Shown here: in pieces, positions 25,421 to 40,283 of the stretch
Numbering within the stretch: the first letter of the stretch is position 1
Layout: each line of letters opens with the position of its first letter
Assembly: GCA_023246955.1 (NCBI GenBank)
Contig: JAHFHK010000003.1
Location: forward strand, 1-49,037
Length of the DNA: 49,037 nt
Direction: 5' to 3'
Source of the DNA: Candidatus Uhrbacteria bacterium
GTDB taxonomy: Bacteria; Patescibacteriota; Patescibacteriia; JACQRZ01
Made by a program: the position numbers and the translations under genes
Notes under the pieces: model-generated
Databases searched by the model: none
Told to the model about the DNA's origin: nothing
The model's input: the letters and a program-made list of their open reading frames with translations, nothing else

Positions 25421-25565
25421 TTCAACTAGACAGCGATACTTCTTTCGGTTACACTATAAGTCGAATTTGAATATTGTATTCTTGTTTTGTATGCCGCTTT
25501 TTGTACTCTTCTGTATCACGGTTCTCAGTTTTGGGTTATTTTTGCTCTCGATAGCGATATGGTCA

Positions 25566-27644
25566 ATGCGGACACGCATTCGCCTTGCACTGGCCTCTCT
25601 GGTCTTATTCGCACTTCTCTGTGGATCATACGGGAGTCTTGAGGCGTATAGCCCTAATAAAGGCGGCATCGAAAGTGCTCTTCATAAGATTTCCTTCCTA
25701 AAGGGGGTATCTCTCCCCGACATCAACGTCTGGAAGTGGATCCCACCCCAGTTTCATCTTGGTCTTGATATCCGGGGAGGTACGCATCTCGTCTATGACG
25801 CAGATGTTTCAAAATATGCCCCAGAGGAAAAGGCATCAGGTATCGAGGGTCTTCGTGATGTCATTGAACGTCGCGTGAATGCGTTTGGCGTAGCCGAACC
25901 AGTAATTCAAGCAGTAAAATCAGGAGATGGGTACCGGGTGATTGTAGAACTCGCAGGAATTAGTGACGTAAACCAGGCGATCAAGATGATCGGCGATACC
26001 ACGCTGCTCGAGTTCAAGGAACAGGCAAATCAGGCAACAAAGAAAGAGCTGACCGAAGACCAAAAGAAAGAAATGAAAGAATACAATGACGCAGCAAGCC
26101 GAAGGGCAGCGGAATTGATGAAGCAAGCGCAGGCACCAGGAGCGGATTTTGCAGCACTGGCGAAAGAGCGTTCAGAAGACGTGAATACAAAGGATAAGGG
26201 AGGAGACTTAGGATTTATCTCTAAAGACGGAGCATACAGCTTCCTCGAGAGCCCTATCTCTAAAATTCCGAAAGGTACCATTGGCAAAGAGCTTTTGAAT
26301 GGTCCCGACGGTATCAGCATAGTCAAAGTAGATGATATCCGTACTACTGAGCAGGAAGTAAAGGCACGCCACCTTTTGATTTGTTACAAAGGCGCAAAGA
26401 GCTGTGACAAGGATACTTCCAAAGAAGACGCACGTAAAAAGATCGAAGAAATTGCAAAGCAGGCAAACCCACAGAACTTTGAGGAACTGGTAAAGAAGAA
26501 CTCAACAGAGCCCGGCGCAGCAGAACGAGGGGGGGATCTGGGATGGTTTGCAAAGGGAATGATGGTAAAACAATTCGAAGATGCAGTGTTTTCGATGAAA
26601 AAAGGAACGATATCAGGAATAATAGAAACAGACTTTGGATTCCATCTCATCTACCGTGAAGACGAACGACCACTTACTGAATACAAAGTTGCCCGTATCC
26701 TCGTCAAAACTAAGACCGATCAGGACTATCTCTCACAAGATGGATGGCAAGACACAGGGCTGACCGGAAAGCAGCTGAAGAAAGCGTATGTAGAGACGAA
26801 TCAGACCACAGGTGCATATGAGGTAGGTATTGAATTTAACGATGAAGGCAAGAAGCTCTTCGGAGAGATTACGCAGAGAAATGTCGGAAAGCCAGTAGGA
26901 ATTTTTCTCGATACACAGCCGATAAGTACTCCGAATGTCAATACGCCGATCCTGGACGGTCGTGCAGTAATTCAGGGCGATTTCAGCTCTTTGGAAGCAA
27001 AGCAACTCGCGCAACGCCTCAACGCAGGGGCATTACCCGTTCCGGTAACACTCATCAGTCAACAGACCGTAGGGGCATCACTGGGCGAGGTATCGCTCCA
27101 TAAGAGTCTCTTCGCGGGGCTCATTGGATTCTTCTTCGTGGCTCTCTTCATGATCCTGTATTACCGTCTCGCAGGGCTCCTTGCAATAATTGCATTGGCC
27201 ATGTACACCACCTTTTCGATGGCGCTCTTCAAGTTCGGTATCCCCTTCATCGGTCCCGTGACGATGAGCCTCTCCGGTATAGCGGGATTCATCTTGTCGA
27301 TCGGTATGGCCGTGGACGCGAACGTGCTCATTTTTGAGCGAATGAAAGAAGAGCTGCGCGGAGGAAAGCAGCTCGAGATTGCGATCCGCGACGGATACAA
27401 GCGTGCATGGACATCGATCCGTGACAGCAATGTTTCTTCACTGATCACCTGTCTTATCCTCTTTAGCTTCTCCACCAGCCTCATCAAAGGATTCGCACTC
27501 ACGCTTGCGGCAGGTATCCTCGTGAGTATGTTCACCGCACTGACGGTGACAAAGCTTCTCTTGCGCCTCGTCGCAGGATGGAAGCTCTCGCAGAACACCT
27601 GGTTGTTCGGTGCATCTAACAAAAAAGACGGTAGCGCCGTATAA
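25566..27644 (+). CDS. secD: Protein-export membrane protein SecD carrying an inserted parvulin-type PPIase module
   Basis: SecD motifs LGLDIRGG, VIVELAGI, and the C-terminal six-TM block with GIAGFILSIGMAVDANVLIFER. The insert has GGDLGF.../GGDLGWFAKGMMVKQFEDAVF...DFGFHLI. The start is uncertain (TTG 25467, ATG 25491 or ATG 25566). Confidence 0.88.
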   Translation: MRTRIRLALASLVLFALLCGSYGSLEAYSPNKGGIESALHKISFLKGVSLPDINVWKWIPPQFHLGLDIRGGTHLVYDADVSKYAPEEKASGIEGLRDVIERRVNAFGVAEPVIQAVKSGDGYRVIVELAGISDVNQAIKMIGDTTLLEFKEQANQATKKELTEDQKKEMKEYNDAASRRAAELMKQAQAPGADFAALAKERSEDVNTKDKGGDLGFISKDGAYSFLESPISKIPKGTIGKELLNGPDGISIVKVDDIRTTEQEVKARHLLICYKGAKSCDKDTSKEDARKKIEEIAKQANPQNFEELVKKNSTEPGAAERGGDLGWFAKGMMVKQFEDAVFSMKKGTISGIIETDFGFHLIYREDERPLTEYKVARILVKTKTDQDYLSQDGWQDTGLTGKQLKKAYVETNQTTGAYEVGIEFNDEGKKLFGEITQRNVGKPVGIFLDTQPISTPNVNTPILDGRAVIQGDFSSLEAKQLAQRLNAGALPVPVTLISQQTVGASLGEVSLHKSLFAGLIGFFFVALFMILYYRLAGLLAIIALAMYTTFSMALFKFGIPFIGPVTMSLSGIAGFILSIGMAVDANVLIFERMKEELRGGKQLEIAIRDGYKRAWTSIRDSNVSSLITCLILFSFSTSLIKGFALTLAAGILVSMFTALTVTKLLLRLVAGWKLSQNTWLFGASNKKDGSAV

Positions 27645-27672: not shown

Positions 27673-28581
27673 ATGCGTACACTTCCCATCATGAAACTTC
27701 GCACGATTTGGCTCAGTATTGCAGGGGCTCTCGTTGTGCTCTCAATCATCTTCCTTTCCTTATGGGGTCTTCGCCTCGGGATAGACTTCACCGGAGGGAG
27801 TATTATTGATCTCTCCTTCCCAGGAAATACTCGCCCTTCGCTGGAGGTAGTAAAGAATGCACTACAGACCGCAGGAGTGAATGACGCAGAGGTACGATTC
27901 GTAGGAGATGAAGAAGTGATTGGGCGCTTCAAAACAATAGACGAGGCTACTCATCAAAAAATTCTCGATGAAGTAAAAAAGAATGCGCCGACGGTGAGTC
28001 AAAAGTCATTTGACTCTATCGGCCCCGTGGTAGGTGCCGAACTGGGGCAGAAAGCATTCATTGCCCTTGCGCTCACGCTTCTTGCTATCTTGGCATATAT
28101 CTCTTTCGTATTCAGAAAAGTATCTCGTCCAGTGCAATCGTGGAAGTATGGTACAGTAGCAATTATCACACTCTTTCATGACCTTATTATCACCATAGGC
28201 GTCTTCTCTCTTCTCGGAAAATTCGGGGGCGTAGAGATTAATGCGTCATTCATCGCAGCATTCCTCACCGTTCTGGGGTTCTCTGTCCACGACACCATCG
28301 TTATTTTCGACCGTATTAGAGAGAATCTCTTGCGCACCCGAGATTCATTTGAAGTAACCGTAAACCGCGCAGTGAATGAATCATTTGCTCGTTCGGTTAA
28401 TACGTCAGTGACGACCCTGTTGTCACTCGTCGCCATCTTCTTCTTTGGAGGAGAGTCATTGAGGTACTTCGCACTTGCTCTCATCGTTGGTATTGCCGCA
28501 GGAACCTACTCCTCGATTTTCTTCTCTTCACCGCTCCTTATCGTTTGGCACAATTTCTCGGAGAAAAGAAAAGCAAAATAA
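27673..28581 (+). CDS. secF: Protein-export membrane protein SecF
   Basis: LGIDFTGG, the SecF TM block, and GFSVHDTIVIFDRIREN. Confidence 0.92.
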   Translation: MRTLPIMKLRTIWLSIAGALVVLSIIFLSLWGLRLGIDFTGGSIIDLSFPGNTRPSLEVVKNALQTAGVNDAEVRFVGDEEVIGRFKTIDEATHQKILDEVKKNAPTVSQKSFDSIGPVVGAELGQKAFIALALTLLAILAYISFVFRKVSRPVQSWKYGTVAIITLFHDLIITIGVFSLLGKFGGVEINASFIAAFLTVLGFSVHDTIVIFDRIRENLLRTRDSFEVTVNRAVNESFARSVNTSVTTLLSLVAIFFFGGESLRYFALALIVGIAAGTYSSIFFSSPLLIVWHNFSEKRKAK

Positions 28582-28680: not shown

Positions 28681-30069
28681 ATGGACTTTGCGATCGATTT
28701 GGGGCCTGCCCCCGATTTATCAAACCCCCTGAGCGTTCTTTGGTTTGTGTACACCCACGGACTATGGCTTTTTTTCGTTGCGACATTGATTCGTGGTGGA
28801 TGGATGTTCTGGGTATATACCGTGCAGAATCGATACGATGGAGCGATCACCCACATGACCCTCGCCATTAGTGTGCCAAAGACGACCGAACAGACGCCAA
28901 AGGCAGTCGAGAACTTTTTTGCGCATCTTACAGGAACGATGAGTGGATCAGGGAATTTTATCGAAAAGCACTTCAAGGGGAAGAATCAGGAGACCCTCTC
29001 GGTAGAACTCGTGAGCAGAGGGGGCAACGTACAATATTATGTGAACACTCCGTCTAAGTTCCGCAACCTAATCGAAGCATCGATATATGCACAGTACCCT
29101 GATGCAGAAATTGTCGAGGCGACCGACTATACCGACGAACTCCCTTCGCGATTTCCGAATGAACATTACGACCTATGGGGAACGGAGCTCACCCTCAAAA
29201 AAGATTCAGAATACCCCATCAAGACATATCAGGCCTTCGAGCATACACTGCAGGGCACGTTCAAGGACCCACTTGCATCACTCCTCGAGTATCTAGGAAC
29301 ATTCCTTCCAGGGGAAGAAGCGTGGGTGCAGATTATTCTCAAGCCAGTAGGGGATGATTGGAAAAAGAAGAGCGACGCAACGGCAAAGAAGATCATGGGG
29401 GTTCCCGTCAAGAAGACACACTCACCAATTCATACAATGACCGCCCCTATCATCGCGAATATAGAGGGAATACTAGCGACAGCGGTAGGGTACCAGGCAC
29501 CCGCAGTAGTGAAAGAGGTCAAAAAAGACGCACCACCCTCATTGATGCAGCATCTTTCTCCAGGTGAGAAAAACCTGATAGAGGCGATACAGAACAAAGC
29601 ATCACGCCCCGCTTTTGCCGTAAAGATCCGCCTCGTGTATATTGCACGCAAGGAGATTTTTAATAAAGGCAAGATGATCGCGGGGGTATTTGGTGCATTT
29701 CAACAACTCAGTGACGCAAATGCCTTCGGTATGGACAAGGGAACAAAAGTAGGGGCAAACTATTACCAGGTAGAAAGGCGCGCAGCAGTCAAGAAGAACA
29801 AGATTCTGAAAGCATACAGAGGCCGTTCGGGTGGACGCGGTGCGGCACCGTTCATCCTCAACGTTGAAGAACTCGCGACGATCTGGCACTTTCCGACGAT
29901 TGATATCAAGGCACCACTTCTTCGTAAAACAGAAGCAAAGCGTGCAGAGCCCCCTACGGCGCTCCCAACCCGCGAAGAGGCATTCGCTCACATTCCAGAA
30001 ACACCCTTTCCTTCTCTCGGCGGGGAGGATGAAGGATCGGAAATACCCTCTAATCTCCCTTTTGCATAG
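28681..30069 (+). CDS. Membrane-anchored hypothetical protein; partner of the downstream coupling-protein-like ATPase
   Basis: N-terminal hydrophobic hairpin (LSVLWFVYTHGLWLFFVATLIRGGWMFWVY) followed by a soluble domain of about 400 aa. Only a 3-nt gap separates it from the next gene. Confidence 0.6.
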   Translation: MDFAIDLGPAPDLSNPLSVLWFVYTHGLWLFFVATLIRGGWMFWVYTVQNRYDGAITHMTLAISVPKTTEQTPKAVENFFAHLTGTMSGSGNFIEKHFKGKNQETLSVELVSRGGNVQYYVNTPSKFRNLIEASIYAQYPDAEIVEATDYTDELPSRFPNEHYDLWGTELTLKKDSEYPIKTYQAFEHTLQGTFKDPLASLLEYLGTFLPGEEAWVQIILKPVGDDWKKKSDATAKKIMGVPVKKTHSPIHTMTAPIIANIEGILATAVGYQAPAVVKEVKKDAPPSLMQHLSPGEKNLIEAIQNKASRPAFAVKIRLVYIARKEIFNKGKMIAGVFGAFQQLSDANAFGMDKGTKVGANYYQVERRAAVKKNKILKAYRGRSGGRGAAPFILNVEELATIWHFPTIDIKAPLLRKTEAKRAEPPTALPTREEAFAHIPETPFPSLGGEDEGSEIPSNLPFA

Positions 30070-30072
30070 GAT

Positions 30073-32046
30073 ATGTACGATAATAATCCTGACATTACCG
30101 TATTCGCAGAAACGAACTACCGCACGATGCGGCGACGTTTTGGTATCAAGCGAGATGATCGCCGCCGCCACATGTATGTAGTGGGAAAGACCGGTATGGG
30201 GAAGTCGACACTGCTCGAAAACATGATCATCGATGATATCCGTGAAGGACATGGCGTAGGGGTAGTAGATCCTCACGGAGACTTGGCGGAAAAGATTCTT
30301 AAGTTCATTCCGCCAGAACGTATCAACGACATTGTGTATGTGAACCCCGCCGATTTTGAATATCCGGTAGCCTTTAATATTCTCGAGAACGCCAACCCAC
30401 AATACAAGCACCTCATCGCGTCAGGGCTGATGGGAGTTTTCAAAAAGATCTGGCCAGACGTATGGAGCGCACGTATGGAATATATCCTCAACAATACGCT
30501 TCTTGCACTCCTCGACTATCCAGGGACGACGATGCTTGCGGTGAACCGTATGCTTTCAGACAAGGCATTTCGCACCAAGGTCGTTGAGCGCGTCCAGGAC
30601 CCAGTCGTAAAATCGTTTTGGGTGGATGAATTCGCCAAATATAATGACAAGTTTGCCTCAGAAGCAATCGCCCCTATCCAAAACAAAGTCGGGCAATTCC
30701 TTTCCGCATCCGTGATTCGTAATATCATCGGACAAGTGAAGTCCACGATCAATATTCGTGAATGCATGGACACAGGGAAGATCATCATCATGAATCTTTC
30801 AAAAGGGCGCGTGGGAGAGGATAACGCACGTCTACTCGGCGGTATGTTGATCACAAAGATCCAGCTCTCAGCGATGGAGCGCGTGGACATGCCGGAATCA
30901 GAACGTCGTGATTTCTACCTCTATGTCGACGAGTTTCAAAATTTTGCAACAGAAAGTTTTGCAACAATTCTTTCTGAAGCCCGTAAATATCGTCTATCGC
31001 TCGTGGTAGCGCACCAGTACATAGAACAGCTCGATGAAAAAGTAGCCGCAGCTATCTTCGGAAACGTAGGCACTATGGTGGTATACCGCGTGGGAGCAGC
31101 CGATGCAGACTATCTCGTCAAAGAATTCACGCCACGATTCATCGAAGAGGACCTTGTTAATATTCCAAAATTTAGCTTCTACCTAAAACTAATGATCGAC
31201 GGCGTAGCATCAGAGCCATTTTCCGCCAAGTGTCTCCCTCCGCTCAGCCCAGAAGAAGATACACATAACGAAGAAAAGGTCATTCGCTCCAGCCGTGAAC
31301 GCTATGCAATGCCACGCCTTGAAGTAGAAGAAAAGATCGCACGATGGTCATCGTCTTTGGACGAATCCGCAAAGGAAGCAGCGGATAGCGCTCCATCAAA
31401 AAAGAAAGCAGTTAACCAAGAGATGCCATCTCCCGATCGCCCCTACGAAGCCAAATGTGTGCGATGCGGAAAAACAATTTATTTGAACTTTCAACCCGAC
31501 GGCGTACGCCCAGTGTATGACAGCGACTGTTTTAAGATAGTAAAAGATGAGCGAGAGGCAAAGTTGGCAGGAGGCACAATGCCTGCCTCTCCGGCACCCA
31601 CTCCCGTCTCAACGCCCCCTCCCTTTGTGGCAGTAACGCCCCCCCCTCCCGTGGCACCTGCACCGATACCCATCCCTGCTGTACCCCCCGCAACACCGCC
31701 TCGTGTATCACCGAACCCTGCTGCTGCTTCGCAACCGAGACCATCAGAACGTCCACATTCGGCAATACCATCACCAAGACCGCCGTATATACCACGTGAA
31801 AGGCCCGTATCCCCATCACGCGATACTCGCCCCTCGCAAGAAAGACGAAGCACAGGAACTCCGCAGCGCCCCACCTCCCCAGCCACTCACAGCCGTCCTC
31901 TGCGCCCTCCCGTATCGGCTGCTCCACACCCCGTAGAAACAAAGCCGACGATTCCCGCGCAGACGTTCTCCCTGAAAGATCTCGCAGACAAGAAGCCGAC
32001 CCGATTCCGCGAAAAGGAAAGCGGTGGTGACGGCCCGAAACCATAG
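30073..32046 (+). CDS. P-loop NTPase of the TraD/VirD4/TrwB (type IV coupling protein)-like or HerA-like class, with a C-terminal zinc-ribbon-like motif and a proline-rich tail
   Basis: Walker A VVGKTGMGKST, Walker B FYLYVDEFQNF, SLVVAHQYIEQL, CVRCGK...RPVYDSDC, and about 160 aa of P/S/T/A-rich sequence. Confidence 0.7.
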   Translation: MYDNNPDITVFAETNYRTMRRRFGIKRDDRRRHMYVVGKTGMGKSTLLENMIIDDIREGHGVGVVDPHGDLAEKILKFIPPERINDIVYVNPADFEYPVAFNILENANPQYKHLIASGLMGVFKKIWPDVWSARMEYILNNTLLALLDYPGTTMLAVNRMLSDKAFRTKVVERVQDPVVKSFWVDEFAKYNDKFASEAIAPIQNKVGQFLSASVIRNIIGQVKSTINIRECMDTGKIIIMNLSKGRVGEDNARLLGGMLITKIQLSAMERVDMPESERRDFYLYVDEFQNFATESFATILSEARKYRLSLVVAHQYIEQLDEKVAAAIFGNVGTMVVYRVGAADADYLVKEFTPRFIEEDLVNIPKFSFYLKLMIDGVASEPFSAKCLPPLSPEEDTHNEEKVIRSSRERYAMPRLEVEEKIARWSSSLDESAKEAADSAPSKKKAVNQEMPSPDRPYEAKCVRCGKTIYLNFQPDGVRPVYDSDCFKIVKDEREAKLAGGTMPASPAPTPVSTPPPFVAVTPPPPVAPAPIPIPAVPPATPPRVSPNPAAASQPRPSERPHSAIPSPRPPYIPRERPVSPSRDTRPSQERRSTGTPQRPTSPATHSRPLRPPVSAAPHPVETKPTIPAQTFSLKDLADKKPTRFREKESGGDGPKP

Positions 32047-32070
32047 GCTCCTCATTCCCTACCCGCAAGA

Positions 32071-32226
32071 GACCTCTGAAAAAGTGATGTATTTTCATTG
32101 AATGGGCTGTTGAGCTCCAGGAAACGTATACAAATGTATGTTTCCGCCAGTAGGCGGATCCGCCATCTGGCGGAGAGTGGAGTCAACGGGTGCCCATGAA
32201 ATGAAAAGACGCGATTTTACAGAGGT
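32071..32226. repeat. Structured palindromic element, copy A (candidate ncRNA or MITE-like repeat)
   Basis: Terminal inverted ends GACCTCTGAAAA / TTTTACAGAGGT with nested stems. Homologous to 45565-45687, with compensatory stem substitutions. Confidence 0.6.
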
Positions 32227-32245
32227 TTCAAACAGAATAACCCCC

Positions 32246-33823
32246 ATGGAAAACATACTCTCAAAACCACTCAAAGCCTTTCTCGAACAGCGAGTATCAC
32301 ACGCGGTGGTCGAAGATGCCGACGAGGCAAAAATTACGATCAACGAAGCGGTCGGCGCCATCGCGTTTTATTATGAAAAAATTCGGAGCGTCGTTGAGTA
32401 TCAAGATGAGCACTTGGTCCGTCAAAATGCAATCCGACGCATCCTCGGCCGGCGCACGCTTCTGTCGCAGACAACCGAGAAGATGGCGGAAAAAATCTTG
32501 CGTGAGCTCGTACGCTCGCGATACTTTGCGAACAATACATTGCCGGCGCGCAACATCCACACTATCGCCCGTATCATCGAGCGCTATCTCGGCATCATAG
32601 AAATACTCCAAAAACAGAGACAGTGTTCCGATCACGACGAAGAGTGGCTCCTCGCAATGGCCTCGTGCGCAATCGACGAGGCACTCGTACCTATGGATGA
32701 CGAAGAGGCGCTCGTGAAGCTCATGTACGATATGGTCGCATCGAACGTAGAATTAGGGCGTTTTGCAACCGATAATAAGACGAAGGCAATTCAAATATAT
32801 CTTGGCGTCTACCGAGTCCTTCTCAAACCCGACACCCATCGTCTGCGCTACTTTGTCCTGAAACATTCATTCCCTGCGTGGACCCATCTCGAAGAAGATA
32901 ATCTTGCCGCACTTGCACATAGCTACAAAGATGTACGATCCGTCATAGAGCTCACGATCAATCACCCTCTCGGAAAGAAGCTCTTTCCACTCCTTCGCCG
33001 TTTCCGCATTCCCTTTGCCGTGCTCCACACGATTATCCTGAACCAACCTCCGGAAATTTTTCAAAACCCAGAACAGCTTGACGCAGAAGTACGTAAACTG
33101 TGCGAAGGATTCTACGCATCACAAAAAAGGCGCCTCAAAACACGCAGTGTCCGCGCCTTCATCTATGTATTTTGTACCAAAATGGTGCTCGGTATGGGGC
33201 TAGAGATTCCTTACGACTTGCTCGTGATGCACCACATCCGTTTTCTCCCGCTGAGCATCAACGTTCTCTTTCCCCCTGTTCTCCTGGCAGTGATAGCGCT
33301 GTCAACACGCTTTCCCGGCAAAGACAATACCGATCGTATATCGCAGGCGGTAAAGGAAATCGTATATGCAGATCAGGAGCGCACAGTATTTGTCCCTCGC
33401 AACTATTTTGCCGCCAAAACAAACGTAGCGCTATACGTCCTATTCACCCTTCTCTACGTGGTGATGTTTGGACTTTCTTTCACGTTGCTTGCATGGTTCT
33501 TGCGCGCATTTGAATTCAACGCAATGAGTGGCGTCGTATTCGTACTCTTCTTCTGTCTCATCACGTTCTTTGGAATCACGCTCCGTCGCTCGGTCAAGGA
33601 TCTCATTATGACCACCGCAAAGCCGAGCCTTTTTGGAGTATTCCTCGACCCGCTCCTTCTTCCCATAGTCCAGGTAGGTCGCTGGCTTTCATCGAATGTC
33701 TCCAAGGTCAATGTCTTCGTCTTCGTCCTGGACGTCCTTATCGAGCTTCCACTCCAGGCACTCATCGAAATAACCGAAGATTGGTTCCAGTTTATCCGCG
33801 ACAAGAAGGAAGAGATCGATTAG
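32246..33823 (+). CDS. Hypothetical polytopic membrane protein
   Basis: Long ORF with a soluble N-terminal half and several C-terminal TM helices. The start is moved to ATG 32246 because the 5' extension in the track covers the repeat element. Confidence 0.6.
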   Translation: MENILSKPLKAFLEQRVSHAVVEDADEAKITINEAVGAIAFYYEKIRSVVEYQDEHLVRQNAIRRILGRRTLLSQTTEKMAEKILRELVRSRYFANNTLPARNIHTIARIIERYLGIIEILQKQRQCSDHDEEWLLAMASCAIDEALVPMDDEEALVKLMYDMVASNVELGRFATDNKTKAIQIYLGVYRVLLKPDTHRLRYFVLKHSFPAWTHLEEDNLAALAHSYKDVRSVIELTINHPLGKKLFPLLRRFRIPFAVLHTIILNQPPEIFQNPEQLDAEVRKLCEGFYASQKRRLKTRSVRAFIYVFCTKMVLGMGLEIPYDLLVMHHIRFLPLSINVLFPPVLLAVIALSTRFPGKDNTDRISQAVKEIVYADQERTVFVPRNYFAAKTNVALYVLFTLLYVVMFGLSFTLLAWFLRAFEFNAMSGVVFVLFFCLITFFGITLRRSVKDLIMTTAKPSLFGVFLDPLLLPIVQVGRWLSSNVSKVNVFVFVLDVLIELPLQALIEITEDWFQFIRDKKEEID

Positions 33824-33825
33824 AC

Positions 33826-33853
33826 TTGACAATATTTCCTCTTGTGCTATTTT
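33826..33853 (+). promoter_or_regulatory. Sigma-70-type promoter (TTGACA-N16-TATTTT with TGTGC)
   Basis: Lies directly after the stop of the upstream gene, 100 nt before ATG 33953. Confidence 0.45.
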
Positions 33854-33952
33854 CTAGGAGTTACCTTGAAAATTCATAGGAAAGTCTGAAAGGAGCTTTC
33901 GGGAATAAAGGTCCCTATCGAGAAGCAATATTCAGGAGAATACAGAGAAAAT

Positions 33953-34780
33953 ATGAGTAATAGCATGAAAGTACACCTGGTCATTATTGACCCACAAAAC
34001 GACTTCATGGACAGCCCTGGATCGGCGTTGCCGGTCTCTGGTGCCAATGAAGACATGCGCCGTTTGGCAGCCATGATCGAGCGCGTTGGCCATAAATTGG
34101 ACGATATCCACGTGACCCTCGACTCGCACCGCGTCATCGACGTGGGGCATCCAGGCATGTGGCGTGATCAAGACGGTAATCTTCCCGGTCCATTCACGAT
34201 CATATCGGCTGACGATATCAAGAACGGTATCTGGACGCCGAGAAACCCGAACTTTCGAGCAAGGATGCTAGAATATGCACGTGCTCTTGAAGTCCAAGGC
34301 AACTATCCATTGATGGTGTGGCCTGAGCATTGTCTCATCGGAACTCCCGGTCACAATGTGCAAGCAGACCTCATGGCAGTGTTGCAACGATGGGAGCGTA
34401 CTGAGTACGCGAATGTCGACTTTGTGACAAAGGGAACAAATACGTTTACCGAGCACTACGGTGCGTTGCAGGCAGAAGTGGTAGATGCCACAGATCCTTC
34501 AACGAGTCTCAACACGGCATTTCTCGACGTTTTAGCGAATGCAGATATTGTGGCAGTTGCAGGAGAGGCATTGAGCCATTGCGTAAAATCTACAGTGACC
34601 CAGATCGCTCAACATATCGGTCCGGATCAACTAAAAAAGTTTTACGTCCTGACCGATTGTACGAGTTCCGTTTCCCAAGTCGGAAATGGTCCTGACTTTC
34701 CCGCAATTGGACAAGCGTTTCTAAAAGAGATGGAAGCAAAAGGCATGACGCTGACCACCTCTATTGAATTTCTGAGCTAG
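33953..34780 (+). CDS. Isochorismatase/nicotinamidase-family cysteine hydrolase
   Basis: LVIIDPQNDF (catalytic Asp), FVTKGTN (Lys) and VAGEALSHCV (Cys) match the D-K-C triad pattern of this family. Confidence 0.7.
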   Translation: MSNSMKVHLVIIDPQNDFMDSPGSALPVSGANEDMRRLAAMIERVGHKLDDIHVTLDSHRVIDVGHPGMWRDQDGNLPGPFTIISADDIKNGIWTPRNPNFRARMLEYARALEVQGNYPLMVWPEHCLIGTPGHNVQADLMAVLQRWERTEYANVDFVTKGTNTFTEHYGALQAEVVDATDPSTSLNTAFLDVLANADIVAVAGEALSHCVKSTVTQIAQHIGPDQLKKFYVLTDCTSSVSQVGNGPDFPAIGQAFLKEMEAKGMTLTTSIEFLS

Positions 34781-34794
34781 GGAGGAAAATAAGA

Positions 34795-35541
34795 ATGCCA
34801 AGACTCGGAACCCAATCAGACATGCAAACCCACGCCTTGGGGGGAAATTTTAATTTCCAAGGAGCCAGGATCGATAACCTGGGTGCTACAGAATATACGC
34901 TCGTCACTATTGCGGTGGATACAACCGGATCGGTGAGCGGCTTCGCAAGTGAGCTAGACATGATGCTGGCAACTGCCGTTGAAGCTTGCAAAAAGTCTCC
35001 TCGGTCGGACAATCTACTGGTGCGAGTGATCTTCTTCTCGAGTATGAGAGGAGTTGATGAGATACACGGCTTCAAGCCACTTGCGGAAATTGATCCGCAG
35101 GCGTATCCAAAAATCAATCCCGGAGGCGCAACGCCGCTCTACGATGCGTGCTTTTCGGGCATTGCCGCCATGAATCTCTATGGCAAACAATTGACCGATC
35201 AAGATTTTGGCGTTAATGCCATATTTATAGCGGTCACTGACGGCGCGAACAATGATTCGAAGACTTCTGTGTCAATGGTGGCACAAGAGATCAAAAAGGC
35301 AGTCAGTGGAGAACTGGTTGAGTCGTTGGTATCGCTATTAATAGGGATCAATGCAAGTGGATGTGCTTCTGAACTACAGAGTTTCAAGAATGACGCAGGA
35401 CTTGACAGTTACATTGATGCCGGTGACGTGACGAAAGGAAAGCTGGCTAAGATTGCAGGATTTATTTCCCAGTCAATATCGAGCCAAAGCCAGGCATTGG
35501 GGACAGGCGGACCAAGCCAGCACATTTCTGCGACCATCTAA
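34795..35541 (+). CDS. von Willebrand factor A (TerY-like) domain protein
   Basis: MIDAS-like IAVDTTGSVSG (DxTxS) and IFIAVTDGANND. GGAGG RBS. Cytoplasmic, with no signal peptide. Confidence 0.75.
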   Translation: MPRLGTQSDMQTHALGGNFNFQGARIDNLGATEYTLVTIAVDTTGSVSGFASELDMMLATAVEACKKSPRSDNLLVRVIFFSSMRGVDEIHGFKPLAEIDPQAYPKINPGGATPLYDACFSGIAAMNLYGKQLTDQDFGVNAIFIAVTDGANNDSKTSVSMVAQEIKKAVSGELVESLVSLLIGINASGCASELQSFKNDAGLDSYIDAGDVTKGKLAKIAGFISQSISSQSQALGTGGPSQHISATI

Positions 35542-35566
35542 AATAGAGGGTCGTATCTGACATAAT

Positions 35567-35599
35567 GGCGATGGGGAACATTCTCCATCGCTTTTTTTC
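35567..35599 (+). terminator. Rho-independent terminator or attenuator between the vWA and PP2C genes
   Basis: Stem GCGATGGGGA/TCTCCATCGC followed by TTTTTTT. Confidence 0.6.
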
Positions 35600-35631
35600 T
35601 TCAAGAATAAAGAAAGGAAAAGGACTAAAAA

Positions 35632-36540
35632 ATGGACGAAATCAATAGAGGGGAACTTTCCGCGGACCATTATTTTCATATTGGTCAGGCACACCTCGTA
35701 AGCGGAAAACCGTGTCAGGATTATGCTATCTCTGGCCTCCATATGGGAGCCGCATACGCAGTCATTGCTGATGGGTGCTCTACGGGAGGAAATACCGATG
35801 TGGGCGCACGTATCATAGCACTGTCTACTGCCCAAGCGATACGGGAGCATCATATACTTATGCTTGCAAGTCAGGGAGGGGTGACAATGGGTGCTCAAGA
35901 AATAAACGAACGACAAAAAGGAGTACTCAGTGTCACACGAAAACTCCTCGGCCTTGAGCAGAGTGATATGCTGGCAACATGTCTCTATGTGTATATGACT
36001 CCTCGCGGGGGGGTTATCAATATACGAGGGGATGGAGTTGTTGCGCTGAAGTATCGAACGGGAGATATAAAAGTATTCCGTATGGAGTGGGGGAACAATA
36101 TGCCATTCTATCCGGCATACGAGGAATCACAGCTGAGCAGCTTTATAGCAGCCCATGGCGCAAATAACGAACCATCACTACGGTTGGAATGTAATATATA
36201 TAACCCAGATGGGACACTAAGAAAGGGGTATTGCCGAGAGCTATCTCTTGATTCGGGCATCGCAGGAAATACATTGAGTATTCCAGAAAAAGAGATGGAT
36301 CAGTTAGAGTTTGTCGCAGTATTTTCTGATGGGGTGACACAAATCGATGCCGTGGAATGGAGCAAAGCGGTGCAGTCATTCATGCGGTTTAAGAACACTA
36401 CTGGTGAGTTTGCAAAGCGACGAATGATTCGTGGCATTAAAGACTTTCAGAAGATGGGTAAAGGTCCCATTGATGATATAGCCTATGCGGTGGTGTACAA
36501 TAATCAGATACAGTTACGGGAGGATACAACATATGGCTAA
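35632..36540 (+). CDS. PP2C-family (PP2C_2-like) serine/threonine phosphatase
   Basis: GKPCQDY, AVIADGCSTGGNTDVGARI and AVFSDGVTQ metal-binding aspartate motifs. Confidence 0.7.
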   Translation: MDEINRGELSADHYFHIGQAHLVSGKPCQDYAISGLHMGAAYAVIADGCSTGGNTDVGARIIALSTAQAIREHHILMLASQGGVTMGAQEINERQKGVLSVTRKLLGLEQSDMLATCLYVYMTPRGGVINIRGDGVVALKYRTGDIKVFRMEWGNNMPFYPAYEESQLSSFIAAHGANNEPSLRLECNIYNPDGTLRKGYCRELSLDSGIAGNTLSIPEKEMDQLEFVAVFSDGVTQIDAVEWSKAVQSFMRFKNTTGEFAKRRMIRGIKDFQKMGKGPIDDIAYAVVYNNQIQLREDTTYG

Positions 36541-38254
36541 TCGCGAGGTAATACTCGAACATAGAGGTGCGCTAACACTACGTACCAGTGACTATATCAC
36601 AACGGGAGGAGAGGGGAGCGTCTATAAAAAAGGCGATACCGTCATAAAGATATACACCGATCCCAAAAAAATGCAGAACGAGGGTATGCCGGAAAAGATA
36701 CGACTACTTTCACGGCTTGCGCACGAATATATTATAGAGCCCAAGGGGCTTGTGATGAACAAAGCAGGAAACCCGATAGGATTCTATATGGCCCATGCCG
36801 CAGGAGAACCACTATCGCGCGTATTTACGAATGATTTTCGTACTCGTGAGGCATTCGGTGATGATGACGTATTGGTGCTTGCGGATCGTATGCGTAATGT
36901 TTGTATCTTCGCACACGGCAAGAACGCCCTTTTGGTCGATCCCAACGAGCTTAATTGGCTTGTTGCATTGAGTAAGAAAGACGGCCCAGCACCAAGAGCA
37001 ATCGACGTAGACTCATGGGCTATCGGGAAATGGAAAGGGACAGTGATTATGCCATCAATTCGTGACTGGCATTCGCGGGTCTTTGATCAACGTACCGATT
37101 GGTATGCATGGGGAATAGTAACATTCCAGCTCTTCACGGGGATTCATCCCTATAAAGGTAAGTTAGATGGGTATAAGCCTGGTGAGATGGAACGACGCAT
37201 GAAAGAAAATGCTTCAGTATTTCGCCCGGATATCCGTCTCAATAGTGCAGTACGCGACTTTGCATGCATCCCGAATCGTCTCCTCAACTGGTACGTCGCT
37301 ACCTTCGAAAGGGGTGAACGAACGATACCGCCATCACCGTTTGACATCGCTCATATACCAACACCTGCAATACAGACGCTCCGTGCCGTGGTAACGGGTT
37401 CTGGGCTCCTGACGTATCAGAAGCTACTGAGTGGTGTTGGAGATCCTATTATAAGGATTTTCACGAACGGCATTGTGCTATCGAAATCAGGAAAACTATT
37501 GCATCTCGGTACAAAGCGAGAAATAGGGAGAACCACCTCACTAGATATTGAGGTGGTAGCGGTGCATGGAGGGTATGTGAAGGTAGAGAAAAATAACGGA
37601 CAATTTCTCTTCTCCTTCATGAACGGAGTGAGTCTTCAAGAACAGCCTCTCTCATGTCCGATCCAACCACATAGCATTGTATGGTATGAGGACCGCATGT
37701 TCGCCGTTACGGAGCAGGGACTCAGTGAGCTAGTGTTCAGGATACTGGGAAAGCCCATACTGTCTATGGGGCAGACATGGGGAGCGATGATGAATGCAAC
37801 CCGTTGGTATGACGGAGTAGGTATTCAGGATGCCATGGGGGCAACCTATGTGATCGCTCCGTTCGAGGCGGCATCATGTGCGCATATTCGTGTGCATGAG
37901 CTTGATGGCATGAAGCCCATTAACGCAAAGGCGGGTAATCGTTTCATAGTCATTATCGCCATCGATCGATCGGGAAGATATCACAAGATTGAACTCACGA
38001 TGGATCGAGTATACAAACAGTATGTATTCTGGAAGCGTGAGAAGGATAGCCCTGAGCTCAACACGGTTATTCTCCCAAAGGGGGTAGCCGCAGTCATAGA
38101 AGAGGACGGTGAACTTAATATCTACGTTCCCACGAATGGTGCTCTGAACAAAATAAAAGACAAGGGTATAAAAACCGACAGACCTTTATCACGCTGGGGG
38201 GACATAGTAACATATATCCACGACGGCGATATATGGAGTATACGAGTGAAATAA
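36533..38254 (+). CDS. Protein-kinase-like protein with a C-terminal domain of about 280 aa of unknown function
   Basis: G-loop/Lys TTGGEGSVYKKGDTVIKIY, catalytic-loop-like LLVDPNELNWL, DFG-equivalent IDVDSW, and TDWYAWGIVTFQLFTGIHPYKG. The ATG overlaps the PP2C stop (ATGGCTAA). Confidence 0.7.
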   Translation: MANREVILEHRGALTLRTSDYITTGGEGSVYKKGDTVIKIYTDPKKMQNEGMPEKIRLLSRLAHEYIIEPKGLVMNKAGNPIGFYMAHAAGEPLSRVFTNDFRTREAFGDDDVLVLADRMRNVCIFAHGKNALLVDPNELNWLVALSKKDGPAPRAIDVDSWAIGKWKGTVIMPSIRDWHSRVFDQRTDWYAWGIVTFQLFTGIHPYKGKLDGYKPGEMERRMKENASVFRPDIRLNSAVRDFACIPNRLLNWYVATFERGERTIPPSPFDIAHIPTPAIQTLRAVVTGSGLLTYQKLLSGVGDPIIRIFTNGIVLSKSGKLLHLGTKREIGRTTSLDIEVVAVHGGYVKVEKNNGQFLFSFMNGVSLQEQPLSCPIQPHSIVWYEDRMFAVTEQGLSELVFRILGKPILSMGQTWGAMMNATRWYDGVGIQDAMGATYVIAPFEAASCAHIRVHELDGMKPINAKAGNRFIVIIAIDRSGRYHKIELTMDRVYKQYVFWKREKDSPELNTVILPKGVAAVIEEDGELNIYVPTNGALNKIKDKGIKTDRPLSRWGDIVTYIHDGDIWSIRVK

Positions 38255-38280
38255 TTTCACTCCGCACGAATCAATGATAG

Positions 38281-38312
38281 GGATAGCTAATATATAGCTA
38301 TCCCTCTTTTTA
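38281..38312 (+). terminator. Rho-independent terminator
   Basis: Stem GGATAGCTA/TAGCTATCC followed by a T-rich tail. Confidence 0.65.
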
Positions 38313-38400: not shown

Positions 38401-39477
38401 ATGAAAAGAACAGTAATACTAGGAATAATGGCGATACTGACGGCATGTGGGGAGGGAACGAATCTTTCGACCCCGCCAACACCACTCACGGCAAGCATGA
38501 CAAAGACGCTTGCACAGCAAACCCAGGATGACGTGGTAACGCAAGGCTTCAATGCAACTATAACGGGTCTGCAAAAGATGGTAGAAACATTAACCGATGC
38601 CAATACCAAAAATCTCGGCGAGATTGCTCGACTCCAGGATGAAGTGAAAGCATGGAAAAAAATCGCAGAGGCAACACAACCCGGCACCACGGCAATACCT
38701 GCTGATGTCCAAAAACAAATCGCAGTGCTGGAGACCAGGATTGCAGTATTGCAAAAAAATGGAGACTCGGTACCCATCGATCTTTTTCGAGAGGTGCTCG
38801 ACAAACTCCCTATTGCATCAGCGGTGCCAACAAGTACCTCTCCATTCGGTGATGACGATTTCTTCCATCCAACACTGCCGATACCAACGCCCTCGCCTAC
38901 ACCTTCTCAATCTCCGACCGAAGCGTCCCCGCCGACGGTTGTCTCCTCTACGTCCCCGGTAACAGAAGGGGCGAGTCAGCTCTCATGGAGTAAGGGATAC
39001 AAGTACGTCAGGATAACGACGAATACCCTAACGCAGACCTTTGATCTGAATTGGAAATATCCGGAATCGGTAGCGGAAATAACGCTGAGAGGGGTCAGTG
39101 ATATATACACTGGAGTAAACATACGAGACATGATGATGGTCGTCGAAGAAGGATATTCTTCAGCAACGCCCAAACTAACCCTCTTGAATGGATCGCATCC
39201 AGTAACGCTAGCAGAAGACGCGGAAAGCCGAGGGGTATACCGCATCGCACAGGACCTCATCATACCGACAGATACTCCCGTGGTACTACGAGCGTATTTC
39301 TCTCCGAATCCAGAGTTGAAGGAAGACTCATGGATGCCCTCATCCTTTAAACTTTCCGTTTACATGACCCCGGTCGAACGATATCAAGACTCGACCTACC
39401 AGCACGGAGAGAAGAATGTGTCCTCCTTCACGGTGATACCGCTCACTCCATCGCCCAGCCCATCGCCCAGTGCCTAA
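38401..39477 (+). CDS. Lipoprotein with a coiled-coil segment, PT/S linker and beta-rich C-terminal domain
   Basis: Lipobox GIMAILTAC, a heptad-like region, TPSPTPSQSPTEASPP, and a PSPSPSPSA tail. Confidence 0.7.
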   Translation: MKRTVILGIMAILTACGEGTNLSTPPTPLTASMTKTLAQQTQDDVVTQGFNATITGLQKMVETLTDANTKNLGEIARLQDEVKAWKKIAEATQPGTTAIPADVQKQIAVLETRIAVLQKNGDSVPIDLFREVLDKLPIASAVPTSTSPFGDDDFFHPTLPIPTPSPTPSQSPTEASPPTVVSSTSPVTEGASQLSWSKGYKYVRITTNTLTQTFDLNWKYPESVAEITLRGVSDIYTGVNIRDMMMVVEEGYSSATPKLTLLNGSHPVTLAEDAESRGVYRIAQDLIIPTDTPVVLRAYFSPNPELKEDSWMPSSFKLSVYMTPVERYQDSTYQHGEKNVSSFTVIPLTPSPSPSPSA

Positions 39478-39490
39478 ATAAGCCATACAT

Positions 39491-39531
39491 GCCGCTATAT
39501 TTTTCATAATGAGAAATATGGCGGCTTTTTT
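39491..39531 (+). terminator. Rho-independent terminator
   Basis: Stem GCCGCTATATTT/AAATATGGCGGC followed by TTTTTT. Confidence 0.75.
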
Positions 39532-39542
39532 ATGCAAAACCC

Positions 39543-39571
39543 TTGACAAAATAAGCTATTCATGGTATACA
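39543..39571 (+). promoter_or_regulatory. Sigma-70-type promoter (TTGACA-N17-TATACA, with TGG upstream)
   Basis: ACCCTTGACAAAATAAGCTATTCATGGTATACATAC. Confidence 0.6.
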
Positions 39572-39620
39572 TACGAGCGAATTCATTGCCAAATACAAAC
39601 AAAAAAAGGGAGAGAAAACA

Positions 39621-40283
39621 ATGAATAAAGTAGCAATAACGATAGCGATAGTGATAGTGAGTGTTCTGACGGGTTGCGGAGGAAATTCGCAATTCTATGA
39701 AATGGAAGCGATGAAGGCAAAGATAAAAAGCCTGGAAGAAAGAGTACCGGTAGCTTTGCAAAAAGCACCCGCACCACCCCCGCCACTGATCACTAACGCC
39801 ATTGCGCCAATCCCGCTACAAAGCTGGAGCGTCGTAAGCGATAAAGTACGCGTAGAAGGAATACCATCCCAAAATCCTCTGGATCAAGGAATGCTCCAGG
39901 TACGCATTGCAGAAATGAAAGTGACAAACAGTGCACCAGGGCCAGTCAACCTTCAGGGCATGTATATGCTCGTGAAGCCAGTGAATATGGACCTCTCCGA
40001 CGTGAAAGCATTCAGTGAACACGTTACAACCATGCAGCATATCGGTGACCTATCTGAGGGAACGCGAGTGTATAAGATCAATGATCCATTCATTGTTCAG
40101 ACCAGTGCTCCCCTCGGTGGATTCGTCCTCGCGGATGCATTCAAGCAAGACCGCAACCGCATTGGCGTTGTAGAAACGACCTTCGTAGGACGACCTCTGG
40201 GCGATATGAGCGCCGGCGATGTATACACTCAGGTAGCGGCAAATCCTTCGATCGCCGCGAAAGTAGTAAATACTTTCAAATAA
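39621..40283 (+). CDS. Lipoprotein, hypothetical
   Basis: Lipobox VSVLTGC, a short coiled coil, APAPPPP linker, and a beta-rich domain. Confidence 0.7.
   Translation: MNKVAITIAIVIVSVLTGCGGNSQFYEMEAMKAKIKSLEERVPVALQKAPAPPPPLITNAIAPIPLQSWSVVSDKVRVEGIPSQNPLDQGMLQVRIAEMKVTNSAPGPVNLQGMYMLVKPVNMDLSDVKAFSEHVTTMQHIGDLSEGTRVYKINDPFIVQTSAPLGGFVLADAFKQDRNRIGVVETTFVGRPLGDMSAGDVYTQVAANPSIAAKVVNTFK

Follow-up and report, generated by a model that had tools for sequence, protein, structure and literature searches.

A four-gene cassette linking a predicted nicotinamidase to a TerY-P-like vWA, phosphatase and kinase triad in Patescibacteria and huge phages

In order to follow up a sequence-only reading of DNA from a Candidatus Uhrbacteria bacterium (contig JAHFHK010000003.1, positions 1 to 49,037; this whole stretch of 49,037 nucleotides is referred to below as the window), we analysed a cassette of four plus-strand open reading frames (ORFs). 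From the ORF list of the window these encode, in order, a hydrolase, a von Willebrand factor A (vWA) protein, a PP2C-type phosphatase and a protein kinase. As the window also encodes MurC, MurD, FtsW, SecA, SecDF, MnmA and AlaRS, it is a piece of cellular chromosome, and a phage origin was rejected because of these cell-wall, Sec and translation genes. The nearest homologues of the cassette proteins are found in Patescibacteria (Parcubacteria-type) genomes. The cassette comprises the following features.

33826 to 33853, plus strand: promoter-like site (TTGACA, 16 nt, TG-extended TATTTT) with 10 of 12 consensus matches and a TG before the −10 element; a consensus match only.
33953 to 34780, plus strand: hydrolase gene (PncA-like, isochorismatase superfamily), 275 aa.
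34780 to 34797, plus strand: GGGAGG ribosome-binding site (34780 to 34785) and the ATG of the vWA gene at 34795, read directly from the sequence.
34795 to 35541, plus strand: gene for a cytoplasmic, putatively TerY/YegL-type vWA protein with a metal ion-dependent adhesion site (MIDAS), 248 aa.
35464 to 35538, plus strand: Ser/Gln-rich C-terminal tail of the vWA protein, SQSISSQSQALGTGGPSQHISATI; near-invariant, proposed phospho-acceptor.
35567 to 35599, plus strand: hairpin GGCGATGGGGAACATTCTCCATCGCT (35567 to 35592) followed by T7; terminator-like, 11 pairs of which 6 are G-C, in the spacer between the vWA and PP2C genes.
35632 to 36540, plus strand: gene for the PP2C-type Ser/Thr phosphatase, 302 aa.
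36533 to 37342, plus strand: protein-kinase domain, residues 1–270 of the 573-aa kinase (Foldseek, hhalign).
37373 to 38248, plus strand: propeller-like all-beta domain of the kinase, residues 281–572 (model, Foldseek).
38279 to 38311, plus strand: terminator-like hairpin (38279 to 38305) and T-run CTTTTTAT; 11 pairs of which 5 are G-C, after the kinase gene.

The promoter-like site lies 100 nt upstream of the hydrolase start and, together with the terminator-like hairpin downstream of the kinase gene, delimits the cassette as a unit on both sides. Within this unit, the hydrolase gene stops at a TAG (34778 to 34780) that is separated by 14 nt from the ATG of the vWA gene; in 42 related loci the corresponding gap has a median of 41 nt (range 10–194 nt). 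The sequence-only reading had described this short gap with its ribosome-binding site, the hairpin and T7 at 35567 to 35599 splitting the locus, and a kinase start overlapping the PP2C stop, and all three were confirmed, with the ribosome-binding site reading GGGAGG. A GC-rich hairpin with a T-run is present in the vWA–PP2C spacer of 37 of the 45 related loci; as these hairpins are unrelated in sequence, it is their structure and position that are conserved. Further downstream, the PP2C stop (TAA, 36538 to 36540) is found within ATGGCTAA and overlaps the kinase start by 8 nt, and at the same junction an overlap or a gap of ≤10 nt was seen in 42 of 42 related loci examined, such that the two genes are predicted to be translationally coupled. 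Taken together, the internal hairpin and the PP2C–kinase coupling suggest two levels of expression, a higher one for the nicotinamidase and vWA genes and a lower one for the phosphatase and kinase genes. No hydrophobic stretch compatible with a membrane helix was detected in any of the four cassette proteins.

To survey gene neighbourhoods, we scanned one genome per species with an alignment of the kinase and recovered 50 loci, throughout from Patescibacteria-type assemblies (some taxon labels being evidently wrong), of which 45 had enough upstream DNA. All 45 contained the order hydrolase–vWA–PP2C–kinase. None of the genes flanking the cassette in the window recurs beside it among the related genome loci, and a larger conserved island around the window copy was ruled out for this reason. 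In the reciprocal test, metagenomes were scanned with the hydrolase alignment; the vWA gene came next, followed by those for PP2C and the kinase, at nearly every locus with downstream room, and at some loci one to three genes were inserted between vWA and PP2C. Additionally, pairwise-identity matrices of the four families correlated with one another (r = 0.69–0.89 over 112 loci), which fits inheritance as one unit, and the order was kept at hydrolase identities down to ∼40 % (∼31 % between the most distant members) and over a GC range of 26–66 %. The adjacency of the hydrolase is not accidental, given that its position is the same in every genome locus with sufficient upstream DNA and that the reciprocal scan returns the triad. 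A lack of co-conservation, named at the outset as the outcome that would undo the grouping, was thus looked for and the clear opposite was found.

Among phage and metagenome variants, the extra genes between vWA and PP2C (survey loci L108:9580-10698, L079:3054-4984, L149, L171, L195 and L201) include a recurrent 372-aa family without a confident Pfam match and, at L079, an SPFH/Band 7 protein together with a 317-aa unknown protein.

The first gene had been read as a D-K-C hydrolase of the isochorismatase/nicotinamidase family, and this assignment holds. The protein scored 28.2 bits against the Pfam Isochorismatase profile PF00857, barely above the cut-off of 27, and its catalytic triad D13/K160/C210 is invariant in 20 relatives and aligned with the corresponding residues of yeast Pnc1. 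Searches of the cassette proteins against NCBIfam and PHROGs gave weak matches only. Sequence matches of the hydrolase in the Protein Data Bank (PDB) at E ≤ 0.05, whether obtained with the single sequence or with a 20-member profile, were nicotinamidases without exception, and included yeast Pnc1 (2h0r), 29iv, M. tuberculosis PncA (3pl1) and P. horikoshii PncA (1ilw). An Asp/His/His metal site, as seen in the Pnc1 and PncA structures, sets nicotinamidases apart from other isochorismatase-family enzymes. In the cassette hydrolase this site consists of D57-x-H59 and H126 (within WPEHC), again invariant in the 20 relatives, and its WPxHC motif aligns with LWPVHC of Pnc1. The motifs of the triad and the metal site are kept in at least 80–95 % of 187 sequences, phage copies included. 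The hydrolase most probably represents a divergent nicotinamidase subfamily, 275 aa long with insertions. A different activity, deamidation of the Gln-rich vWA tail, was considered and set aside, as the pyridine-binding metal site is kept and the gene is linked to pncB, nadD and nrtR.

For the second protein, a search of Pfam returned no match. Its AlphaFold model (pLDDT 85, pTM 0.87) matched integrin I and vWA domains of the PDB in Foldseek with a probability of 1.0 and a TM score of ∼0.65, and the MIDAS residues D42-x-T-G-S46, T113 and D149 are invariant among relatives, in agreement with the cytoplasmic vWA protein with a MIDAS-like motif proposed earlier. The last 25 residues are near-invariant in 25 relatives, and the pattern F.S.S.SSQSQ.LG.G..S is retained in 154 sequences that include phage copies; in the model the protein is disordered from residue 238, i.e. 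over the last ∼11 residues of this tail. Homologues are labelled ‘YegL’ by JGI and ‘VWA domain-containing’ by NCBI. Comparison with E. coli YegL using hhalign gave a weak match (E = 1.5e-3, probability 17 %), in which the MIDAS motifs, and also the C-terminal tails, Ser-rich in both, line up. The third protein matched Pfam PP2C_2 (PF13672) with E = 1.3e-13, as the sequence-only reading had led us to expect, and its Asp-bearing motifs of the metal site (DGCS, GDG, DG and DD) are kept across 140 sequences; its similarity to E. coli PphC is marginal (E = 7e-4 in a single-comparison BLASTP).

The kinase ORF opens at 36485; taking the conserved ATG at 36533 (MANREV...) as its start gives a protein of 573 aa that ends at 38254. 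Its Pfam score was below threshold (16 bits). In the predicted structure (pLDDT 82), however, residues 1–270 match protein kinases with a Foldseek probability of 1.0 (ULK1, Aurora, PknS and others), and the family aligns with E. coli YegI in hhalign (probability 96 %, E = 2e-9). Conserved in 130 sequences are the P-loop GGEG, K39, D136/N141, D158/D160 and the motif GIHPxKG; with an E-value limit of ≤1e-30, the family comprises 922 clusters at 50 % identity. Residues 281–572 are modelled as an all-beta domain of ∼29 strands with pLDDT mostly between 80 and 90, which is less conserved than the kinase domain. Foldseek matched this domain to chain B of the HOPS complex structure 8dit, a CNH domain and a designed propeller, whilst BFVD returned WD40, Kelch and seven-bladed lactonase folds. 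The top overall PDB match of the model is LRRK1, in which a kinase is followed by a WD40 domain, and the best BFVD match is a two-domain myovirus kinase (E = 8.6e-26). The long C-terminal domain of this kinase-fold protein, for which no assignment had been offered previously, is therefore modelled as a soluble beta-propeller, and a sensor or docking function is proposed for it. Profile searches placed two of the four proteins, with PF00857 and PF13672 above cut-off; the vWA protein without a match and the sub-threshold kinase were settled by the models.

The name TerY-P has been given to triads that combine a Ser/Thr kinase with a PP2C-like phosphatase and a TerY-like vWA protein (PMC11090510, PMC7699616, PMC4978471). 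Their kinases end in a zinc ribbon where the triad is linked to CoCoNuT, and in an OB fold in the stand-alone systems that are reported to be anti-phage (PMC11090510). With its propeller-like C-terminal 290 aa, the modelled cassette kinase has neither. The description of the last three genes as a TerY-P-like triad accordingly stands in part: the composition agrees and the kinase is matched to YegI at 96 % probability, but the kinase C-terminus is of another kind, and the similarity of the vWA and PP2C proteins to their E. coli counterparts is marginal. Judging from these alignments, the three proteins are probably distant relatives of the E. coli YegL/PphC/YegI triad.

When ORFs around the genome loci were clustered, three neighbours recurred at ∼20 loci each and were identified with Pfam as NrtR (NrtR_WHD and NUDIX domains), a nicotinate phosphoribosyltransferase (NAPRTase) and a NadD-like adenylyltransferase. 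Genes for the salvage of nicotinamide adenine dinucleotide (NAD) were likewise found near the cassette in many metagenome loci. The cassette is located between nrtR and nadD/pncB at L059 and between nrtR and pncB at L063, whilst nadD and pncB directly follow the kinase gene at L067 and L072. Operators of NrtR are 21-bp palindromes with a GT-N7-AC core, and the repressor is released by ADP-ribose (PMC2330246). We detected TTAGTGT-N7-ACACTAA upstream of the hydrolase in 43 of 199 regions, compared with 6 of 199 coding-region controls. A scan of all 2.67 Mb of fetched DNA for TAGTGT-N7-ACACTA with ≤1 mismatch produced 120 sites, where ∼6 would be expected by chance (our own estimate, which assumes uniform composition). 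Fifty-three of these were within 400 nt upstream of a hydrolase gene (36 loci), 16 upstream of nrtR, 10 of pncB and two of nadD. As boxes precede the hydrolase as well as nrtR, pncB and nadD, the cassette is predicted to be part of the NrtR regulon in many Patescibacteria. Moreover, because characterized NrtR repressors are released by ADP-ribose, the cassette would, by analogy, be switched on during NAD consumption. The earlier guess that the hydrolase marks a step of NAD salvage is strongly supported by these neighbours and operators in relatives, and we consider it highly probable that the four genes constitute one NAD-linked unit.

Several further observations were made in the same neighbourhoods. 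Second nicotinamidase paralogues are found near the cassette in two Patescibacteria loci (L013:10742-11776 and L037:4346-5206); that of L013 has an NrtR-type box ∼320 nt upstream of the BLAST match, or ∼190 nt upstream of the ORF start. A protein of ∼200 aa without a Pfam match (L004:4595-5200, also L002:4275-5060, L005, L010, L043, L060 and L061; L060 and L061 are 83–85 % identical to L004) is encoded directly upstream of the nicotinamidase gene or in frame with it, and possibly belongs to the NAD/NrtR regulon as a new member. NrtR-type boxes unassigned to a gene occur at L002 (3809 and 3856, upstream of the ∼200-aa ORF), L027 (4803 and 4850) and L059 (2288, 7536 and 7581). Finally, nrtX/nrtY, a two-gene set of unknown function (PMC2330246), could not be tied to the triad.

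The cassette is not confined to cellular genomes. Among deposited phage genomes, the hydrolase is encoded by three of huge uncultured phages, LR745208.1 (485 kb), LR756511.1 (595 kb) and LR756500.1 (462 kb, GC 23 %). In LR745208.1 and LR756511.1, BLAST also places a vWA gene beside it. LR745208.1 and LR756500.1 have the cassette in the same order, the latter with the PP2C/kinase overlap as well, its vWA and PP2C genes having been identified by ORF position and motifs rather than by BLAST; the stretch fetched for LR756511.1 stops before any kinase match. In IMG/VR, 139 stretches encode a relative of the hydrolase. Downstream DNA of at least 5 kb was available at 75 loci, and 64 of them contained all of the vWA, PP2C and kinase genes. 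These viral loci have GC contents of 26–66 %, are on contigs of up to 618 kb, and in some instances include pncB, nadD or nrtR nearby. High-GC versions of the cassette occur in Bradyrhizobium genomes. The copy of B. cenepequi (L215:6622-11743, in the 4.70 Mb region of the chromosome) has two extra small ORFs inside it. Its surroundings are a run of small genes on one strand that resembles a prophage, and Dam, T5orf172, a lytic transglycosylase and an RNase T-family exonuclease are among the products of this run. In LR756500.1, Tpt1/KptA (an NAD-dependent RNA 2′-phosphotransferase; L134:1106-1666) and NadE (L134:4849-5709) are encoded 3–8 kb upstream of the cassette, and the same stretch includes a PTH2 peptidyl-tRNA hydrolase, a dCMP deaminase and a sigma-70-like factor.

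The reading that we favour is of a regulated nicotinamidase module for NAD salvage. The output of the cassette would be the deamidation of nicotinamide, the first step of Preiss–Handler NAD salvage, for which the nicotinamidase would act together with the vWA protein, both being produced at higher levels. The YegI-like kinase would phosphorylate the Ser/Gln-rich tail of the vWA protein and PP2C would remove the phosphate, whilst the propeller of the kinase would sense a ligand or dock a partner. Whether the vWA protein is phosphorylated or not, as possibly read by its MIDAS, might then tune the activity, partners or site of action of the nicotinamidase, so that nicotinamide would be converted to nicotinate in step with NAD turnover. 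During phage infection, the same arrangement could keep up NAD supply, for example against NAD-depleting host defences. We put the probability of this model as a whole at roughly 55 %, and grade any single step of the phospho-switch much lower than that figure.

A number of observations weigh against it. The hydrolase reaches only 26.9 bits with the NCBIfam PncA equivalog, for which 174 are needed, and its substrate could be another pyridine amide. No NrtR-type box was detected upstream of the hydrolase in the window, where the one match with two mismatches is inside the kinase gene and is at chance level, and none of nrtR, pncB and nadD is present in its 49 kb; the regulon link therefore rests on relatives, and the window copy is an exception. 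A few hydrolase loci without the triad also exist, both in metagenomes (L069, L075, L103 and L126) and in IMG/VR (L198, L206, L213 and L214). Lastly, secondary sources on Gao et al. (2020) give TerY-P as active against T7-like phages (PMC11090510, PMC7699616).

That reported activity is the starting point for a defensive role of the kind suggested by the sequence-only reading, in which the triad would sense infection and the nicotinamidase would serve as effector or accessory; removal of nicotinamide could block the rebuilding of NAD by the phage, or NAD depletion could be reinforced. Besides having the TerY-P composition and a kinase related to E. coli YegI, the cassette has flanks that, outside the NAD genes, vary between genomes as they do for mobile modules, and its presence in phages and prophages is compatible with this role since these carry defence genes too. 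In Patescibacteria, however, its surroundings are NAD salvage genes and NrtR-type operators precede it; huge phage genomes of lytic type carry it very commonly, and its kinase is without the OB fold or zinc ribbon of described TerY-P kinases. Furthermore, no restriction or recognized defence genes were noted among the conserved neighbours, the flanks not having been screened for defence genes. Nor did any PADLOC profile for TerY-P match the cassette proteins, but this negative is uninformative because the E. coli YegL/PphC/YegI control was also unmatched. On balance the case for defence is weak, and we regard it as quite unlikely.

The abundance of phage copies lends itself to a different account, namely that this is a phage counter-defence module, adopted by some Patescibacteria, which rebuilds NAD via nicotinate after host NADases have fired, with the triad activating it only during infection or NAD stress. 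The 139 IMG/VR stretches with a full cassette in most testable loci, the three huge-phage records and the Bradyrhizobium prophage-like region all argue for it, as do phage-borne pncB, nadD and nadE near some cassette loci and the presence of Preiss–Handler genes in jumbo phages (PMC11662467). Against this, the window itself is a cellular chromosome, and cellular copies share their NrtR-type control with ordinary salvage genes. We consider this account unlikely as a separate explanation, although it overlaps with the regulated salvage module rather than excluding it. A more mundane possibility is that the hydrolase is an ordinary housekeeping nicotinamidase and the triad is unrelated to it, being kept adjacent only via shared transcription. 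The hydrolase relatives that lack a triad would fit such an arrangement, and the internal terminator may point to separate expression of the two halves. Nevertheless, the order is maintained in every testable genome locus and in most viral ones across a wide range of identity and GC content, the four families co-vary, and flanking genes change while the four genes stay together; we thus find mere cohabitation very improbable.

If the regulated salvage module is correct, the cassette connects signalling triads of the TerY-P type, of which little is understood, with NAD salvage, and its nicotinamidase, an obligatory and easily assayed partner, makes the switch directly testable. CPR (candidate phyla radiation) bacteria are expected to depend on salvage, and to NAD salvage in these genome-reduced organisms the cassette adds a signalling layer. 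As many huge phages have it too, the cassette is also relevant to the arms race over NAD in which phages and bacterial immunity are engaged. Looking more widely, it is conceivable, if doubtful, that TerY-type triads are general phospho-switch adaptors for different outputs, here a nicotinamidase, with sensor-controlled NAD rebuilding via nicotinate in huge phages and CPR bacteria as the result. On this wider view, the cassette would represent a third, regulated pathway of phage NAD reconstitution against NAD-depleting immunity, and would supply the first concrete biochemical read-out of a TerY-P triad at work. The Bradyrhizobium prophage-like copy offers a culturable starting point for experiments.

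Elsewhere in the window, 25467-27644 encodes a SecD protein whose periplasmic region contains two inserted PPIC-type peptidyl-prolyl isomerase (rotamase) domains, and SecF is next, at 27673-28581. The stretch from 28681 to 33823 encodes a TrwB/VirD4-like coupling ATPase (30073-32046) with a treble-clef zinc finger and a long Pro-rich tail, between a 462-aa and a 561-aa protein that are both without a Pfam match, the latter strongly hydrophobic. None of these three recurs beside the cassette in other genomes. The cassette is directly followed (38401-40283) by the genes of two lipoprotein-like proteins, 358 and 220 aa long; each has an N-terminal Cys-containing signal-like sequence and no Pfam match, and neither is kept beside the cassette elsewhere.

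Three sets of known systems can be compared with the cassette. The NAD genes of jumbo phages (NadV/NMNAT and pncB-nadD-nadE clusters; PMC7824862, PMC11662467) are likewise phage-borne salvage enzymes, sometimes clustered with pncB, nadD and nadE, but these reports concern enzymes only, and no NAD enzyme in them, nicotinamidase included, is tied to a vWA/PP2C/kinase triad. With the NrtR-regulated Preiss–Handler operons (nrtR-pncA-pncB-nadD-nadE; Rodionov et al., 2008, PMC2330246) the cassette loci of relatives share the order nrtR, pncA, pncB/nadD as well as the form of the operator, a 21-bp-type palindrome with a GT-N7-AC core. The cassette differs from them in having three signalling genes directly after pncA, where the regulons tabulated in that study contain no vWA, PP2C or kinase gene, and the window copy differs in being without the NrtR box and the other salvage genes.

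The closest parallel to the signalling genes is the E. coli set YegL/PphC (YegK)/YegI, in which the three components and their order are the same. In E. coli B strains, too, the kinase gene begins before the phosphatase gene has ended, and YegL also has a Ser-rich C-terminal tail that aligns with that of the vWA protein, albeit that the sequence similarity of YegL and PphC to their cassette counterparts is marginal. In the literature consulted, TerY-P triads are listed among anti-phage systems and no mechanism is described for them, and full-text searches recovered no description of TerY with a nicotinamidase or of NrtR and pncA with vWA and PP2C. Compared with TerY-P, the cassette has an obligatory fourth member in the nicotinamidase gene, and its context is NAD salvage under NrtR and phage genomes, as opposed to ter operons or restriction systems. 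Its kinase is predicted to be soluble with a beta-propeller of ∼290 aa, whereas the others have a zinc ribbon (CoCoNuT), an OB fold (Gao-type) or two membrane helices (YegI). Within the literature searched, the cassette is therefore an undescribed TerY-P-like variant, distinguished by its obligatory predicted nicotinamidase and its soluble, propeller-bearing kinase.

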